A stretch of 64,000 nucleotides of DNA from positions 248,001-312,000 of the forward strand of contig OY253680.1 in assembly GCA_958009085.1 (NCBI GenBank), written 5' to 3'. Under the pieces are notes generated by a model. It saw only the letters and a list, made by a program, of their open reading frames with translations. It had not been told where the DNA came from and made no database searches. Shown here one piece after another: positions 1-9,300 of the stretch (position 1 is its first letter; the number at the start of each line of letters is the position of its first letter). The stretch comes from Protoeuglena noctilucae. Lineage: Eukaryota. Position numbers and translations under genes: made by a program.

Positions 1-104
1 GGGGAGCGCTCCCACCAGGGAGCCGCGGGAACCCGAGTGGAGCTTGTCTCTGGGAATCGCCGCTTCTCTCGAGCTCCGCTCTTGCGCGTCGAGACGCTTT
101 CCCG

Positions 105-2697
105 ATGGGCCAATGGAATCCGCGCTGTCCCGCCAGCCGCATCCGTAGGGCCGCCCCGGGTGTGCACAGTCGACCCCGCCCCCCGCCGGGCACACCCCCA
201 AGCCGGGAGCCCCTCCGCTCTGCCCGCAGAGTAGCGCCGCGCACCGCCTCTCGACTGGCTTCCGGCCAGGGATGGGGCTGGTCCATCTGCGTGGCGGACG
301 GGAACGAGCTGTACGCGTGGGGCCCCGTCCCGACAGCACGCGACCCTCCGTCGGACGCGCGGCCCGCCTCCGCCTCCGCGCCGCCCCACGTCTCCCTGGT
401 GCCAGTCCCAGGCGGCTGCCAGCAGGCGTCGGCGTGGCGCTCGACGATCGTCGCCTGCAACGCGAGCGGAGAGCTCTTCCAGGTGCCGACCCGCCATCTG
501 CCGCCATCCGCAGGCAGCCGCCATCCCGTGGCTCTCCCTCGCGCCCCATCGCGCTGATTGACTCGGGCACTTCACTCCGCTCCGCCGCATCCCCCCGCGC
601 AGGCCTCCGTGGATGCGCTGACGGAGGCGGGGGAGGCGCGAGACCCTTCGTCCCCTGCCGTGTGGCGCGTCGAGGTGGTCGAGTTCCCGTTGCAGAGCAT
701 AGCGTTAAGCCAAGTCGCGGCGGGCGAGGGGCACTGCCTGGCGCTCAGGTGAGGGCACGCCTCCGAGCGTCGCGTGTCGGTGTTGCATCACACGCGGCGC
801 ACGTGGTCACAGGGTCTCTGTTGCCCCCAGCACGGCTCTATGTCTTTGCCCCCCCGCAGTGAGACGGGCGAGGTGTGGGCATGGGGTTCGAACGACTGCG
901 GTCAGGTCCGAGGGAACGTGCTGCGGGAGGTCTCACGCCCCGCGCTCGTGTGGGGGCCGGCCATGATGTCGGCCATCGAGGTCGAGATGGGCGCCCAGTC
1001 CGACTCGGGTGCGTGAGACCGTCGTTGCGCGCGAGGGAGGGGCGGCGTCTGCTCAAGGCCCTACGCCCGCTGGCACAGCCACCGTGACGACACCCACCCA
1101 ACCTCAACTTCTTGCCGCCCCCGCAGGCTCGGAGGGCCGCCGCGCCTCTGCCGGCGCGCTGGGCGTGCGTTCGGCCACGCAGCCGCGCATGCACGCCCGC
1201 CCGCTGTCGACCGCGAGCTCCTTCCGCTTACCCACCAAGGCCGCCTCGGCCCTGTCGCCCCTCGCCACCACGCAGTCCCTCGTGCCGTCCTTCCGCTTCC
1301 ACGCCTCGCCGCTCGAGACTCCCGCGAGCCCCCGCACGCTGACCACCATCCCCAGCTCCCGACTCGCGTCGGGCACAGACGCAGAGAACAACCCCACACC
1401 GGTCCTGGGGCCCCTGGGGGCCGTGTCAGGCATCGCCCCCGCACCCCAGGGCGCGCCGGGGATGGGCCCGGTGCCCGCTGCGGCCCCCGGGCTCCTCGGC
1501 AGCGTCCCACGCGGGGCCGGGCCCAACAAGCAGAAGAGCGGCATCTCGAGGTTCGCCTCGGTCCGGGGCACGGCGGGGCACATGGGGGCAGCGCCCGCGG
1601 TGAGCCTGGCTGCTGCGGTGCCTCGGTTGCCTCCTGCCCTACCCGCTCTTGCGTTGCGACCTCAGACGCTGCGGATAGCCCAGCGTCGTGCATCTGTGCT
1701 CGTGCCAGGCCTGTCAGCACGAGCGTGTTGGTTGTACAGCACGTCGCGATATGCGAATCCGCTTTTCGCCTCTTCCCGCAGCTGGCAAACGGCACGGCCG
1801 GTGGCACCCAGCAGCAGGGCTGGCACGCCCACTCGGCCCAGAGCGTGGCCGCCGGGTCTCGCCACAGCTGCATCGTGATGCGGGCGGGGGAGGTGCTTCT
1901 GTGGGGCTGGAACCTCTACGGGCAGTGTGGGCAGGACCCGATGGCGAAGGCGAGCGAGGACGTCGGCCGTTCTTGGCGACTGAGAGCCAAGCAGGCTTGT
2001 GCCCGGCGTGTCATGCATGGTCGGACGCGAGTGAAAGTTGTGCCTGTCGTGGTTTGCAGGACCGGCAGACGCTGTACCAGCCGACCAAGGCCGCGGGGTT
2101 CACGGGGCTCGGGGCCAAGAGCGTGGCGGCGGGGGCGGGGCACACGGCGGTGCTCACGGGGACGGGGGAGGTGTGGACGCTGGGGTGGAACGACAACGGC
2201 CAGGTGAGTCACATTGTGCTGCACTGCACTTCGTGCGGCTGGGCACACGCTTGGTGGAAGCGCCACGTCGGCTTCGTTGGAATTTGGACCTCAAATCAAC
2301 AGCCAGGCCACGACCCCCGACTGGTTGCTACCTATGAACCACGGCGAACCCCACTCCGTGATTGCAGCTGGGTACGGGCGACACGCGCAGCACGTTTGAG
2401 CCCGAGCTGGTGGACCACGAGGACCTGGAGGGGGTGGCGGTGAAGGTGGTGCAGTGCGGGGCACGGCACACGGCGCTGCTGATGGAGGACGGCAACCTGT
2501 ACACGTTTGGGTGGAACAAGTACGGGCAGTGCGGCCTCGAGATGTCGGAGGACAACGACTCGGTGCTGGAGCCCGTGTGCGTCGACCTGGGGGCGCTCCT
2601 GCGACGCGCGAGGGGGGCGGACGAGGGGCGGGGGGACCCCGTGGCGTGCCGGGACGTGGCATGCGGGCGGTGGCACACTGTCGCGCTCATCGGCTGA
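105..2697 (+). CDS. RCC1/UVR8-like repeat beta-propeller protein, multi-exon, with a Pro/Ala/Ser-rich insert; 5' end uncertain
   Basis: Spliced exons (approx. 230-483, 603-748, 859-1008, 1127-1599, 1782-1949, 2060-2203, 2368-2697) give RCC1 repeats: VAAGEGHCLALSETGEVWAWGSNDCGQ, VAAGSRHSCIVMRAGEVLLWGWNLYGQCG, VAAGAGHTAVLTGTGEVWTLGWNDNGQLG, VQCGARHTALLMEDGNLYTFGWNKYGQCG. Confidence 0.88.
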
Positions 2698-2760
2698 GAG
2701 CTGGCTGTCGAGTCGTGGCTTGCGGCGGGTGGCAAACAGTCGCACTGATCGGATGAGAGC
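2647..2760 (+). repeat. Diverged 59-nt tandem duplication of the last 16 codons plus stop of the RCC1 gene
   Basis: 2647-2700 encodes CRDVACGRWHTVALIG*; 2706-2760 encodes CRVVACGGWQTVALIG*; both stops are followed by GAGC. Confidence 0.92.
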
Positions 2761-3207
2761 AACCGACCATTGCCATGATTTCCCGGCTGACGTCTGCCCG
2801 TCCGCTGCTGTCCGATGCGCTCTGTCCGTTTGGGCTGCCTTGCTGCCCGGCAACGTCGTCTCGTGCCTCGCTGCTCTCTATGTTCGTCCGTTCCGTCTCT
2901 GTGTGTGTTGTCCAGACCAGTCGCAGGCTTGAGCGTGGCACAGTATCATTCCACGATCGCGTGGGGCCGCCTGCCTCGCCTCGTGGGGTAGGAGCGCGGC
3001 AGCTGCGTCGTGGCTGACCAGGTTTGGTTAGTTGATTGGTGCCCTTTCAAAGGGAGTGCTGAGTCTGGGAAGAGTGGCCGCGCAGACGTGCGCATGCGGC
3101 CTGCCAAGCGAAGAAAGGTCGTTGGACAGAATCAATGACGAGAGGCGCGGGTCAAGTGCCAATCACACTCGGGGGTATCGGGGTACGCCGATATCATAGC
3201 TGCAAGT

Positions 3208-4872
3208 TTAGTGTAGCCACATGTCCGTGCGCCCCGTCCTTCGGCACCGCATGCACCGCCGGTTGAGCCGCGAGGTCTCTGGGAGGGACCTTCTGCATAG
3301 CAGGGTGCAGCGGAAGGTTATCTCCAGAATAACATGATTAAGATAGGTGGTCTGAGTCTCGGCACCGACTCGGGCACACGCTTTGAATGCTTGGGAGCCT
3401 GTCATCGCAGTCCTCACCGCCTCTTCCCCAGCCTCGTCCTCGACCCTGCCGTCGTGCTTTTTTCGCTTGGCGATGCTGCGCCACCTCTCCCGTAGCTCCG
3501 TCACGGTGCGTCCATCAAACACGACACCCCCCGCCCGCAGCACCTTCCGCCACTGGTCTCGCCCATACTTACGGACCAGCGCCTCTAGCAAACGACCCTC
3601 TTCCGCCGACCACCTGCGCTTTCATGCAGCAAAGACCTGCTCGCTGCATGCCATCCATATACACCAACCTCTCGTGGCCCACCTGTCCTAAGCTGCCACT
3701 GCGCTCAGCAGACTGAGTGCGCATCAGTGAACAGGCATGGTCTCTGCGCCCCCACCTGCGGCCCTTGGCGGGCGGCTTGGACTTGGACTTGACGCTCTTG
3801 GGTTTGGGTGCGGGGGCGGTGCTGGAGGTGGGCACCTCGGGGTCAGGTGCTGGGACCGCGCCCCTTGCCTCACAGTCCGGGCATGACCACGGCTGGCTCT
3901 GCGCGGCCTCCACCTCCGCGGGGCCCATCCGCACGCACTCCGGGTGAAACCACTCCTGGCAAGCATTGCACCTGCAGGCAGGATATGGCACACGCAGGTG
4001 GCAGCGTTGCGCGTGATGTTGAGGAGCGTGCGGATACAGCACTCGCCGCTCCAGCGACGGACTGAGAAGGACGATCCGCAGCTGTGGCGCAGCGCATCGC
4101 ATAGCAGAGCAGCAGGTGCTCTGCAGAACGACCTCAACGCCGGGCATCTCACCCAATCATCATTTCGTCCGGGTTGTAGGGCATCATGCAGCGGCAGTAC
4201 ACATCGACCATGTCCGGATCAAAGGCGCCAGTCTTGCTGCTGTAGCGAAACCGGCAGAAGAAGTCGCCCTCGTCGACGGCCTCGAGCGCAACGAACGTGT
4301 CGACGTCACTCACGCGCGCGCGGCCGTCCACGGACGTCGCCGAGCAGCTGTCCCGATGGTCCGACTGTACGCAGGCAGTGGGCGACGGCGTGAGGCGCAG
4401 CGAGGCCGGAGCGCGCGGCCAGGGGGCTCAGCAGCGACACGCACCAGCAGGAGCTCCTTTTTGCCGTGAAAGCACTTCCGCCCGCCCTTGACCTCCTCCG
4501 GCCGATAATACCAGCTCACATTGATCATGATGCCGTCATCGCCATGGTATATCTCCTCGATTCGCGCGACGTAGTACGGCTCCCCCGGGTTGGCCGGCTT
4601 GATGAGCACATCGTCACCCCCTGCGCGTCCCCGGCGCATCAGGCTAGACGAACGTGCATATCATCTGTCATACATCAGGCTTTTGGCTCCGCAAGGGCGG
4701 GGGACTCACGCGTGTACTGGGCGCCAAGCTTCTCAAAAGCCTCGATCGCGGCCGCCCGCGGCGGCTCCTCCTGCGCGTCCGCTGCGGCGGACGGCCCCAC
4801 ACCAGCTCCTAAGCTACCGTTCGGCTCGTGCGTTGAGACGCCACCGGGCTCTAATTCCGATTCGGCGCCCAT
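3208..4872 (-). CDS. EBS/SHL-like BAH-PHD chromatin reader with a C-terminal TRF/telobox-type Myb domain
   Basis: BAH: GDDVLIKPANPGEPYYVARIEEI...[30 protein letters not shown]...FFCRFRY. PHD: VYCRCMMPYNPDEMMIGCNACQEWFHPECV...WSCPDC. After intron 3755-3614, Myb: RRWSAEEGRLLEALVRKYGRDQWRKVL...RTVTELRERWRSI. Start ATG uncertain. Confidence 0.88.
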
Positions 4873-5146
4873 CACTCGCAGAGACGCTGCAAAACCATGC
4901 CCGTCCTTTTGGCTCTTGCTGGAAATAAACCCATACGATATCCATCCAGCTTTTGCACATATTGCTGATGACGACGGGCGCCTCGCAGCCATCATCGGCT
5001 CCCGGTTCGCCCCGCCAGTGCCCGGCCAACCCTAACTGGCAAACCCAAAAACACACCTCCGCTCCCGGGCCTCGCTGAAGCTCAGATGCGCTTGTTCATT
5101 TCGATAGACAGACCGCCGCCTGTCATCCAAGAGCGCAGGCGCCGCG

Positions 5147-6065
5147 ATGGAGGCGGAGGAGCCGGAGGTTAGGTCGCCCGACCTCGAGGCCCCGCTGCTC
5201 CGCGACGCGGGCGCCCAGGGCCAAGACGCCGCATGCGAGGGAGGCGTCTGACAAAGACCGCCGAGTCTGAGGACCCAGCATAGCGCAGAGGTGAGATCTC
5301 GCGCGGCTATCCCGTGTTAAGACAACGCCCTCAGTTTTGCATCCCGGGTGCCGCGTGACGTGCTCCGCACGCCCTGTTTCTCTTGCAGGCCGTCAACAGC
5401 GACATCCTCACGTCGCTCGGGAGCGTGCTCTTCAGCCTGCCGGCCCTCCTCGGCTCCTGATGCTGGCCCGTGCTGCTGTTCGGGGCCCTAGGGCTCGCCG
5501 TCACGTCAGCAGCACGCCAGCTCGCTCACTCGCTCACCCTCACCATCAACTGCACGGTCCTGTCGAACCTCGCGCAGCACGTCCTGCACAAATGCGCCGC
5601 ACGCGCCGGGAAGCCCCGGCAGGTGGGTCAAGCGGGCTTGGCAATGCACACAATGCCCTGACTGGAGCTAGGCTAGCAGCGAGTCCGTTCGCTTCTTCCC
5701 GCGCGCAGTACGGTCCCTTCTGGATGTGCCTTTCGGCAGCCATTCTGTGCAACCTGGACCCCCTCCGCCATGTCTTGCTGGACTCAGGCTTCGGGGCTTC
5801 GTGGATGTCCATGTACCGCCCGCACTGTGCCAGCCACTCCAACTGGGCGTGTCTGTCCGTGGTCGGATGGACCGTCACCATCGGCAGCACGTACGTGGGC
5901 TTCGCCCTGCTCATCGCGGGCGTGCTGTGGGTCTCTAACGTCCCCGCCACGGTCGCCCAACTCTGGCGACAGGCCAGGCGTCGTCGGGAGGTGGCCGCTG
6001 CGTCCAGCTCCAGTCAACTCCGCACGCCCCTGGCAGCAGCAGCACCACCACCTGAGGAGCCCTGA
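5147..6065 (+). CDS. MSP: Membrane selenoprotein (MSP-like), 3 exons (5147-5290, 5389-5622, 5709-6065), ~244 aa, in-frame TGA at 5458-5460 and possibly at 5249-5251
   Basis: Phase-0 GT-AG introns join an otherwise open frame ...LGSVLFSLPALLGS-U-CWPVLLFG...YGPFWMCLSAAILCNLDPLRHVLLD...LSVVGWTVTIGSTYVGFALLIAGVLW, with several hydrophobic helices. The PALxGxUCWP motif matches my recollection of algal/Dictyostelium MSP. A SECIS-like hairpin lies in the 3' UTR. Confidence 0.85.
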
Positions 6066-6104
6066 GAGCTTCCTGAGTTGCTTCCCTGCATGCCCCGTGC
6101 TGCA

Positions 6105-6180
6105 CCTGCGCTTGACGGCCGCCTTGACGGCGGGCGCACAAACCTGAAAGGGCCGCGCCTCGCCTGATTTCTGCCACAGG
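6105..6180 (+). promoter_or_regulatory. Eukaryotic type II SECIS element (3' UTR of the MSP gene)
   Basis: Core TGAC 6125-6128 / TGAT 6165-6168 (tandem G.A/A.G). Helix II GGCGGGCGC 6129-6137 pairs with GCGCC(T)CGCC 6155-6164. AAA at 6140-6142, 11 nt after the core. Apical mini-stem CCT-GAAA-GGG. Weak helix I: GGC 6117-6119/GCC 6173-6175 and CCTG 6105-6108/CAGG 6177-6180. Confidence 0.82.
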
Positions 6181-6324
6181 CCCCCGCCAGTGTGAGCGAC
6201 TGCCGGGGGCTCTGAGGCTTGCACACTGTCTCGCGCAGGTGTGGTGCGGAACACTGGGTTAGCTTTTTGAATAGCAGCATCAGCGCTGGCTTGTTTGAAA
6301 ATTCCAACGCTACCTAGCATGCGC

Positions 6325-9300
6325 TCACGAGCCCTGCCCGCCCGCCTCCGCGCCGCCGTCGCCAAAACCAGCCCCAGTCCCTCCGTGCCCGCTTTCGTGC
6401 TGCATCTGACTATCGTGCTGCATCGAGTCCTGGGCACCGTCCATCGCCCCAGGCCCACCGTTGGAGTCGGCGGGCCGCGACGATTGCGTGGCGGAGGGCG
6501 GGGCGGGGTGAGGGGCTTGCCCACGGCCGAGATTCGCAGGCCCGTGCGCAAACGTGCCGCCGACACAGTGCTGCACCGTCAGCCAGTCGCTGTGCTCCGA
6601 CATGATGGGCTGCGCCCACCCGGGCCCTGGCCCCACGGCGAACGATGTGCAAGCGTGACTTGCAGGGTAGGGTGCAGCGTGGCTCTGGAAACCATCGGCC
6701 CAGGACGCCTGCCCCGCTGCCATGCCGTGCATGAAAGACGGGGGGCTCGCGTGGCCCATGGCCTGCGGCGACGTGCCGTGCGCAGGCGACCCGCTCGGGT
6801 GCCCAGGACCCGCTCCCTGCGTGGCGGTGGCCCCTTGGGTGGCCCCTCCTGAGCCGCCCCGGTGCAGCCTCTCCAGAATGGCAAGAGAGTAGCGCAGGTC
6901 CACCACGTTCTTCTCCAAGCTCGCAATGACGTGCAGCTTCTGGTCCAGCTCTTTCTGCAGGCGAGACGCATAGACCATTACGAATCACACCCAGCCATGC
7001 CCACCCTGTCATGCAAACCCCCTTTCCCTCACCGCACCCCGTCACACGGACACTCCCCCACGCCGACATACTACCGCACCCTGACAGCACCCGTCCCTCA
7101 CAACACTTCGTCAGGCACACTACCGCACCCTGACAGCCCCCGTCCCTCACCGCCAGTCTCTCGTTCTCCACCTCCTGCTCCTCCATGTACTTCTGCCGCC
7201 GCTCTCGACTCTTGCGGGCGCTCAGTCGGTTGCGCTCCCGGCGGTCCATGGAAGGCCCAGAGTCACCGGGCCCAGCCGCACCCGAAGCGCCGCCAAAGGG
7301 CGCCCCCGACGGCGTCGACAGGGTTGGGCCTCTGCTGGTCCCCGCCGCGCCGCTGTGCCCGTCCGACAGGCGAGGCACCTGGTAGCCCGGTCCCAGTGCC
7401 ATGGGGCCTTGGAAATCCATGGGGTGCATCGCCCGCGAGGCCATGGCCGCCGCGCTGTGTGTCTGGCCTTGCTCGCTCGCCGCGCGCCGATGCCCCGCCT
7501 CTCTGGCAGAGGCTGCGTGGGTCATGCCTATGGCCGCGCTGCTGAAGTCCATGCCTGAGAGCAAAAGTCAACAGTACAAGCATGGGTATGTCTGGTGAGG
7601 AAATCAACAATCAGCCGGGGACAAGTAGGTGATAATCACAGGCGCTGTATATAGTATTCTCTGCGCTGCAGCTGACATTCCGCAAGGACAGGCAGGCAGG
7701 TGGCTCTAACACATGGGCCACGCCAAAAAACAACAGCCATCACGCACCTTGACCGCTGGGCCCTGGGCCCTCCGCAGATGCCCAGCCGTGGCCCTGGAAG
7801 CTCGCCCCGCAGCTCGCGAGCCCCATGGTGCTCATGTTCGGGGACACCCCCGCAGCACCCGAGTCGCTGAGCGCCACGCCAGCACCCGGCCACCCGGCGT
7901 GAGGCGTGGGCCCGGGCAGACCCCTGGGGGCCTCCGCGGGAGGGACTGCGGACCCCTGCGTCACGGTCGTGTCCGTAGCGGCCCTCGTGCTCTCCATGGC
8001 CGCCCCGGGGCATGTACCCAGGACACCTTCAATGGTGTCGGCCCACCTGTCGCCCGTCACAGGGCCCGTCCCTGCCGCAGACGCAGCCCCTCCCGCCCCC
8101 GCGCCTGTCGCGTGCCACCCTGCGTCGCCGCCGTGCGGAGATAGCTCCCCAGGGTCTGACATGCGCCTGCGCTTGCGCTGGGGCCCCGCGCCCTGGCCTG
8201 GCCTCGGCTCCACCTGCGCCGCCAGCGCCGCGTGGGCTGTGACGAGCTGCGGATGTAAGCGGCGGGTTCGGTTTCAGGCCAAAAATGGGCTATAAAGGTG
8301 TGGGACGATGGTAGCGTGTGCGGTCGTTTGCGTGACGTGCATGCACAGCTCACCTGCACCATTCTGGCGGGGATGCCCCCGTCAGGGAGCCTCATATGGC
8401 TCTGCGTCCGCCCATCCTCGGCCTGTCCGCCGTTTCCGGCTGATGCTTCTGCAGGGTGGACCGAGGGCGATGTCCGTGAGGCTTAGATGTGTGATGGGCA
8501 TGGTGAGCACGATCATGGTGAGCACGATACAGGCACAACTGATATCTCCCCGGCATATTACACCAAGAGCGCTGCCTGGCCCCAGATCCCGCTGTGGTCA
8601 CCCACTCTCAGGGTTACAGTGCGCTATGGCCATGAATGCATCTAGGTGATGCACGCATGCACTTGTCGTCGCTGCACTCACCGGCATGGGGATGAGGCCC
8701 CGGGCTCGGCGATGCTCGCAGCGCTTCCGATAAGAGACCGGCCCCTGGGGACGGGTGCAGCGACACCGATGGCCGGGGGCTGTTGCCGCCACGGGCACCT
8801 CCGCTGCCGCTGGGAGATATTTGAATTCCCTCCACCCCCATCTCCAGGAACCCGGGCATGCCGGGTGCGAGCCGGGGATCGTGGGTGCCCAGCTGCGAGG
8901 TGAAGGTCGAGGAAGGAAAGTGACGGAGTGTGCTGTGCCAGTCGGCTTGTGCAACATGCAGGGCTGCGTGTGAGCGGCTCACTTGCGGGCCGAGACTGGG
9001 TTCAGTGCTCCCCGAGTCCTGATCCAGGAAACCAAAGATCTGAGCTGGAGGGCCGTTGGTGCTGCGAGGGAGGGCGGGGAAGGGTGCGGTCTGTCACCAG
9101 TCTCACCAGTTGACTTGTTACCTACCCACGGTGCGCTCCGTGCACGTAACCAAAGCATTGCGGGGCCCCGCGACGCCAAGACTCGCCCGTGGTTGCCAGG
9201 CCCCAGCTGCTGCGCGGCACGGGATGGCCCCGGGATGCGCCCCTCTGCCGCGAGCTGACTCAGGATGCTGGAACCCAAAGCTCCCGCGTGAGGCCACCCG

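Follow-up and report, generated by a model that had tools for sequence, protein, structure and literature searches.

On the plus strand of the window (the whole 64,000-nucleotide stretch analysed) lies what is almost certainly a single-copy, spliced and transcribed gene for MSP, join(5147-5290, 5389-5622, 5709-6065), whose 244-residue product would carry selenocysteine (Sec, U) at positions 35 and 72 under the direction of one SECIS element in the 3' UTR. Contigs of four of the 13 runs listed were compared with the gene; X1 and X3 are two marine metatranscriptome samples of one study (P1), and X5 belongs to study P2. P0059 is a natural Cys-only homologue. The features, in window coordinates, are:

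5094..5146, plus strand: 5' UTR, minimum extent; the X1 contig starts at 5094, and contigs cannot give the true start.
5147..5290, plus strand: coding exon 1, for residues 1-48, the acidic tail that is predicted to be cytosolic; it opens with the first ATG in the RNA-covered mRNA, and the X1/X3 joint and the translation agree.
5180..5200, plus strand: acidic dileucine DLEAPLL, residues 12-18, candidate vacuole/lysosome sorting signal by consensus fit.
5234..5251, plus strand: tail motif C30-E-G-G-V-U35 with the first Sec codon, TGA 5249-5251; the six residues are identical in Dictyostelium MSP and the codon is kept in RNA.
5291..5388, plus strand: intron 1, 98 nt, GT..AG; X1 and X3 joint.
5389..5622, plus strand: coding exon 2, residues 49-126, broken helix 1 and helix 2; RNA joints and P0059 model.
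5458..5463, plus strand: second Sec codon, TGA (U72), and the adjacent C73 in P-A-L-L-G-S-U-C-W-P; locus survey and published alignment.
5527..5529, plus strand: H95, where helix 2 starts; invariant in 45 of 45 aligned cores (H92 in P0059 numbering).
5623..5708, plus strand: intron 2, 86 nt, GT..AG; main joint in X1, X3 and X5.
5709..6065, plus strand: coding exon 3, residues 127-244 and the stop TGA, with predicted helices 3 and 4, luminal loop and basic C-tail; RNA joints and 130 proteins at E<=0.001.
5757..5783, plus strand: D143-x-x-R146-H147-x-x-x-D151 stripe at the end of helix 3; R, H and the second D in 45 of 45 cores, the first D in 44 of 45.
5826..5852, plus strand: loop cysteines C166 and C174; at least 90% in alignment A3, below 85% in the 45-core set, lost in L065-L081.
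6066..6284, plus strand: 3' UTR, minimum extent, bearing the SECIS; X1 and X3 RNA contigs.
6124..6168, plus strand: type II SECIS with U-UGAC core, helix II, AAA bulge, mini-helix and UGAU; pattern and Rfam search.

Two genes on the minus strand flank this one. A divergent BAH-domain gene occupies 4140-4872, and about 165 bases separate the end of its RNA cover from the start of the MSP RNA; a convergent bZIP gene lies at 6400-7300.

An earlier note, made from the sequence alone, had proposed three phase-0 exons in one frame broken by TGA only, and the exon joints and the translation agree with it. The exons measure 144, 234 and 357 nt and sum to 735 nt, that is 244 codons and the stop TGA at 6063-6065. 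The sole internal stops in this frame are TGA codons 35 (5249-5251, exon 1, in the context ACEGGV-U-QRPP) and 72 (5458-5460, in LPALLGS-U-CWP). The latter was the one Sec that the note had named, and it stands in the translation; U35 at 5249 was not named there and has to be added. Between the two TGAs the mRNA has no in-frame ATG, so a protein bearing helix 1 requires read-through at both.

RNA covers the gene from 5094 to 6284. Spliced contigs of X1 and X3 have the joints 5290/5389 and 5622/5709 (GT..AG) and span both TGAs with no differing letter; removal of the TGA at 5458 by splicing was specifically checked, and the spliced RNA retains it. X5 contigs have the intron 2 joint only and cover neither TGA, and X6 contigs are unspliced and may be the source of this DNA. 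In both X1 and X3 an alternative acceptor extends intron 2 to 5787 (165 nt), which removes 79 extra bases and shifts the frame. The shifted frame reaches a TGA at 6145, within the SECIS, and its product would lose helices 3 and 4; the share of this splice form is not derivable from contig depths. The gene occurs once in the source genome. The expectation that automated annotation would mis-model it is borne out in the protein collection, where it is represented by three products (157, 113 and 84 aa), all without either Sec.

SECIS element and Sec decoding in the source genome

The SECIS-like hairpin that had been noticed past the stop codon was found at 6124-6168, 60 nt 3' of the stop and inside the RNA-covered 3' UTR, with a type II layout (UGA-12-AA-24-GA with a mini-helix). 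It is sub-threshold in Rfam: SECIS_1 matches 6125-6173 with 19.4 bits (E 0.75), where the gathering score is 35. Shuffled sequences fold with energies just as good (z -0.07 to 0.62), and the base ahead of the core is U, where a purine is canonical. When the 3' UTR was shuffled 3000 times with dinucleotides preserved, the full pattern arose just 9 times, and a genome-wide search for RF00031 with a limit of E<=10 gave this element alone (E 5.79; 120 of 122 candidates scored).

In the closest relative, L016, the SECIS shape is preserved with a both-side change in helix II, and L016 is the one locus of 20 related ones with a SECIS match in Rfam (23.3 bits). The 5' cores are unusual in both genes, UUGAC at window 6124-6128 and AUGGC at L016:3420-3424, and the remaining type II shape is intact. 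More widely, 21 of the 67 related loci are followed by the pattern, in about seven different hairpins, as compared to none of the 67 reverse strands; the other 46 loci, some with short UTRs, gave no match to it. The source genome also has a Sec-containing GPx gene (L101, G000:C10:747499-747747) with a canonical type II SECIS at L101:2495, of the same 12/24 spacing as in MSP, while its other two GPx loci have Cys at the Sec site.

The presence of Sec machinery had been proposed as a check, and the genome encodes tRNA-Sec (77.9 bits, anticodon TCA), SecS (seven exon matches), eEFSec (E 5e-14, hitting eEFSec only), SBP2 (E 8e-4, hitting SBP2 only) and, by profile search, SelD. SecS, SelD and eEFSec were matched exon by exon and lie under the whole-protein cut-offs. 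The same exon-by-exon, lossy search gave no TIGR03575 candidate for PSTK, a search with PF08433 gave one gene that reads like KTI12, and the SelW/SelT family was not found in a lossy search of the genome. Judged by its gene content, the genome is able to decode Sec. Gene structure, retention of both UGAs in RNA, their conservation, the SECIS pattern and the machinery were observed directly; Sec insertion at both UGAs we infer.

Relatives of the gene and their Sec sites

A search with exon 3 returned 130 proteins at E<=0.001 and 67 metagenome loci, which form 40 groups by their first 30 matched residues; three loci without cover of helix 1 were dropped, leaving 64. Alignment of Sec or Cys at 5458 among homologues had been set in advance as a test of the single-Sec proposal, and the homologues agree with it: the U72 position is TGA in 61 of 64 loci and Cys in 3, and C73 is present in 45 of 45 aligned cores. 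For the tail, Cys-x(2-4)-TGA occurs within 400 nt upstream, in any forward frame, in 59 of 64 loci (33 of 37 distinct groups) as compared to 13 of 64 in the reverse-strand control. Within about 110 residues and in the same open frame it is found in 39 loci, and in the intron-bearing loci inspected it sits in an upstream exon. Of the five loci without it, two lie at contig ends, one is a C-U variant and two are Cys-only genes. Read in this way, the survey shows the predicted tail Sec to be nearly family-wide across distant protists.

Variation at the two sites takes several forms. L063 and L064 have CC in helix 1, a long C-tail and no tail motif, which means that some members do without the tail pair. 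L071 retains the tail Sec and has CC in helix 1, and L030 has an adjacent C-U in the tail. Two-UGA genes with introns and near-identical SECIS hairpins were seen in L026, L032-L037, L044, L047, L048, L050, L052, L053, L055, L056, L058 and L059; several of these contigs bear human-gut metagenome names, which indicates that a gut protist keeps the MSP selenoprotein. Four proteins of the collection (P0086, P0087, P0091 and P0143) have W at the Sec positions. This is probably TGA read under a TGA=W code, and such records conceal selenoproteins. The L065-L081 clade, represented by nine distinct transcript contigs in the tree, has an extra N-terminal hydrophobic segment ahead of the dileucine and the C/U motif and is without the loop cysteine pair. 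In the tree the window gene groups with L016 (support 100/99) and the backbone stays open.

An intron-less Cys-only MSP gene lies at L105:6001-6654 on a viral contig of 28% GC (IMGVR_UViG_3300045993_001219, 355,864 bp), which presumably belongs to a giant virus. It has C-x4-C in the tail and an adjacent CC, with TGT codons throughout, and its neighbours are lipase, DUF5760, thioredoxin-like, TnpB/resolvase and glycosyltransferase genes. Our viral scans confirmed 0 of 8, 1 of 6 and 1 of 56 stretches, both hits being this same IMG/VR contig. The tree names no donor for the copy, and a literature search brought up nothing on a viral MSP.

Predicted protein and its possible function

The AlphaFold model was made of P0059 with a 100-row alignment. 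It stands in for the window protein, to which P0059 is 40% identical over 161 aligned core residues. The model (pLDDT 81, pTM 0.69; tail of low confidence, about 50-60) has helices at 48-65 and 68-78, together a broken first helix, and at 85-114, 121-149 and 176-201, with a further helix at the C-terminus; the thiol pair sits at the helix 1 break. Hydropathy likewise predicts a multi-pass membrane protein. Loop 2-3 contains 4 Lys or Arg and the C-tail 6, as compared to 1 and 1 in the other loops, and this concentration of basic residues suggests that the N- and C-ends are cytosolic and that loops 1-2 and 3-4 face the lumen. Across 45 aligned cores, in window numbering, C73, H95, R146, H147 and D151 are present in all, and U/C72 and D143 in 44. 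C166 and C174 form a probable structural disulfide.

The dileucine in the tail fits (D/E)X3-5L(L/I), given in PMC5383025 as the plant tonoplast sorting consensus. This consensus fits the tails of 13 of 23 relatives, as compared to 1.7 expected from shuffles, and LL occurs in 21 of 23 as compared to 3.7 expected, both counts being inflated by kinship; 10 of the 23 tails are without the consensus.

We see about an even chance that MSP is a four-pass oxidoreductase of an endomembrane, probably that of the vacuole or lysosome, in which a cytosolic C/U tail reduces an intramembrane U-C pair. With the N- and C-tails toward the cytosol, the C30/U35 redox pair of the flexible tail would be reduced by cytosolic reductants (thioredoxin or glutathione systems) and would pass electrons to the vicinal U72-C73 pair at the helix 1 break. 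This pair would act on a substrate held near the luminal face by H95, D143, R146, H147 and D151, the candidates being a lipid-phase oxidant or a luminal disulfide. Topology, location and redox relay are all things that we infer. In characterised selenoproteins Sec is the redox residue and is usually paired with Cys. Each Sec of MSP has a Cys partner, which is the usual sign of a redox pair, and Cys replaces Sec where it has been lost at U72. The His/Asp stripe fits a metal site equally with a catalytic site. We dropped a three-pair relay that would lead through the loop cysteines to the lumen, because loss of that pair in the L065-L081 clade makes it unlikely.

More tentative, and on balance doubtful, is the fuller picture of two selenium centres in series on the vacuole or lysosome membrane, in a widespread protist protein whose fold is without a solved relative and whose activity is useful enough for a large DNA virus to have captured a Cys-only copy. 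If this is true, MSP carries cytosolic reducing power into the membrane or the lumen. A relay of this kind would account for the supply of reducing power to the protist vacuole membrane.

A smaller share of probability goes to a vacuolar carrier or sink for soft metals (Cu+, Hg2+, Cd2+, Zn2+) of a Mer-like kind, which we hold unlikely. Here the U-C pair of helix 1 and the His/Asp stripe would bind metal and exchange it with the cytosolic C/U tail. The vacuolar sorting motif would suit such a role, and the D-x3-H-x3-D on one helix face, together with a second His, may be taken to resemble a metal site. The nearest named Atlas clusters are MerT-like (score 0.77, a lead only), and one pairwise hhalign run aligned the adjacent-Cys pairs of MSP and MerT; however, the hhalign probabilities were 0.7% and 1.8% for MerT and 1.8% for MerC, and a profile run aligned a different region with a score of 18.3, where column shuffles reached up to 16.8. 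The lead to MerT homology thus failed in three profile comparisons with scores near those of shuffles, the shallowness of the MerT profile (Neff 1.6) being a caveat. MerT is also not among the Pfam families listed for 100 MSP members, and MerC is listed for 3 of 100 (best E 0.017). Selenolate binding of Hg and Cu is nearly irreversible, and this would serve a sink better than a carrier.

Still less probable is a function in selenium or sulfur handling, either release of selenium (or cysteine) from vacuolar breakdown products or selenium sensing, where the two UGAs would make the level of MSP steeply dependent on selenium. Two UGAs served by one SECIS, the first just 35 codons in, fit this proposal, as do the vacuolar motif and the existence of a frameshifting splice form; in PMC7539508, MSP is moreover among the families that are almost exclusively Sec-containing in algae. 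Against it, Cys-only members exist, one of them on a viral contig, which means that the function does not require selenium, and the flanking genes, with BAH and bZIP domains, have no link to selenium genes.

That UGA35 or both UGAs are true stops, with exon 1 as an upstream ORF or the whole as a decaying pseudogene and only a truncated product made, is very improbable: the SECIS is sub-threshold and non-canonical, and four of the five rows printed in PMC2375036, all but that of Dictyostelium, have no tail U, but no in-frame ATG separates the TGAs, distantly related eukaryotes have kept Cys-x(2-4)-TGA, Sec machinery is present in the genome, and the 741 nt of the published O. lucimarinus coordinates equal the two-UGA frame of L018. 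The probability left over from the redox reading and these three rivals belongs to functions not listed here.

Work on the function of MSP now has concrete points of attack, namely the sorting motif, the two predicted redox pairs, five polar residues that are invariant, and Cys-only homologues found in nature, such as P0059, P0040, P0025 and P0060, which are expressible without Sec recoding. Among the last, the viral copy is a recoding-free protein for a first biochemistry of MSP. New here are the breadth of the tail C/U motif, the neighbouring dileucine motif, the invariant polar set, the unusual SECIS cores and the Cys-only copy on a viral contig, and a gene represented only by Sec-less fragments in the protein collection is now corrected.

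Comparison with known systems

MSP was described by Lobanov et al. 2007 (PMC2375036) as a 'membrane selenoprotein' that 'had two Sec residues', and a 75Se band of MSP size was observed in Dictyostelium. In the alignment printed there, all five MSP rows have U in the helix-1 motif and the second U of the Dictyostelium protein lies in CEGGVU. The assignment to MSP made in the earlier note holds against this alignment: by its Sec motif, its two predicted Sec, its core homology and its multi-pass prediction the window protein is a member, a further one of a family known since 2007 and not a new kind of protein. The window protein is also matched, with 44% identity (E about 1e-16 among candidates), by loci L018-L022, whose sequence resembles the printed O. 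lucimarinus MSP. The printed Ostreococcus rows begin past the tail Sec. We dropped the idea that the tail Sec had been overlooked in them: for O. lucimarinus the paper gives coordinates 741 nt long, just as long as the L018 frame with its two UGAs, and it is therefore probable that two Sec were already known outside Dictyostelium as well. MSP is called a predicted selenoprotein in PMC7435645, and a term search of PMC6627142 gave no mention of it. The literature searched, which leaves out most subscription papers, contained no functional study of MSP.

The window protein has the CEGGVU tail motif in common with Dictyostelium MSP and, over the stretch that comprises helices 1 and 2, is identical to it in 31 of 54 residues by a visual count. 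With published MSP it shares P-x-L-x-G-x-U-C-W-P, the RHxLxD and CLSxxGW blocks, two Sec and a 3' UTR SECIS. It differs from published MSP in a longer low-complexity C-tail, and its gene in the alternative frameshifting acceptor and in the U ahead of the SECIS core, where PMC2375036 gives G for Ostreococcus and a UGUA element for Dictyostelium. As compared to the published MSP organisms, the source genome is intron-bearing, of 26.3 Mb and about 66% GC, and marine according to the runs that contain the gene.

Wider relatives were sought by sequence and by fold. Pfam gave no family for the MSP exons or for six full-length homologues; the best match was TrkH with E 6e-4, which stays under the TrkH cut-off. 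Across 100 members DUF1218 came up most often (15 of 100, best E 5e-4), and we treated its matches as generic membrane matches. A profile search of PDB sequences gave only matches at E>=0.26 (VTC1), and Foldseek on PDB and BFVD none at E<=0.001. The best match of VIA-align, alpha-catenin (Z 8.3), is a generic helical bundle. A missing fold match of this kind is compatible with a known family as well as with a new fold. Among prokaryotes, one pattern gave 267 matches in GTDB genomes, none of which was confirmed as a relative.

Like MerT and MerC (PF02411, PF03203), MSP is a small helical membrane protein in which Pro follows an adjacent thiol pair in the first membrane segment, and, as in the Mer layout, its second thiol pair would be cytosolic. 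Unlike them it has Sec, four predicted passes and a His/Asp/Arg cluster, and no significant sequence or profile similarity links the two.

SELENOK and SELENOS are membrane selenoproteins with flexible Sec tails, and DsbD/CcdA, DsbB and VKOR are membrane electron relays; none of these is among the matches listed in either PDB fold search. The analogy of MSP to SELENOK and SELENOS is functional and lies in a disordered cytosolic Cys/Sec pair; that to DsbD/CcdA, DsbB and VKOR, also functional, lies in electron-carrying thiol pairs in a broken membrane helix. In contrast to both groups, MSP would carry its two Sec in different places, one in the N-tail and the other within the membrane, and we found no common motif. 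Relatedness to the electron relays or to the Mer proteins lacks support, and by analogy MSP may work like either.
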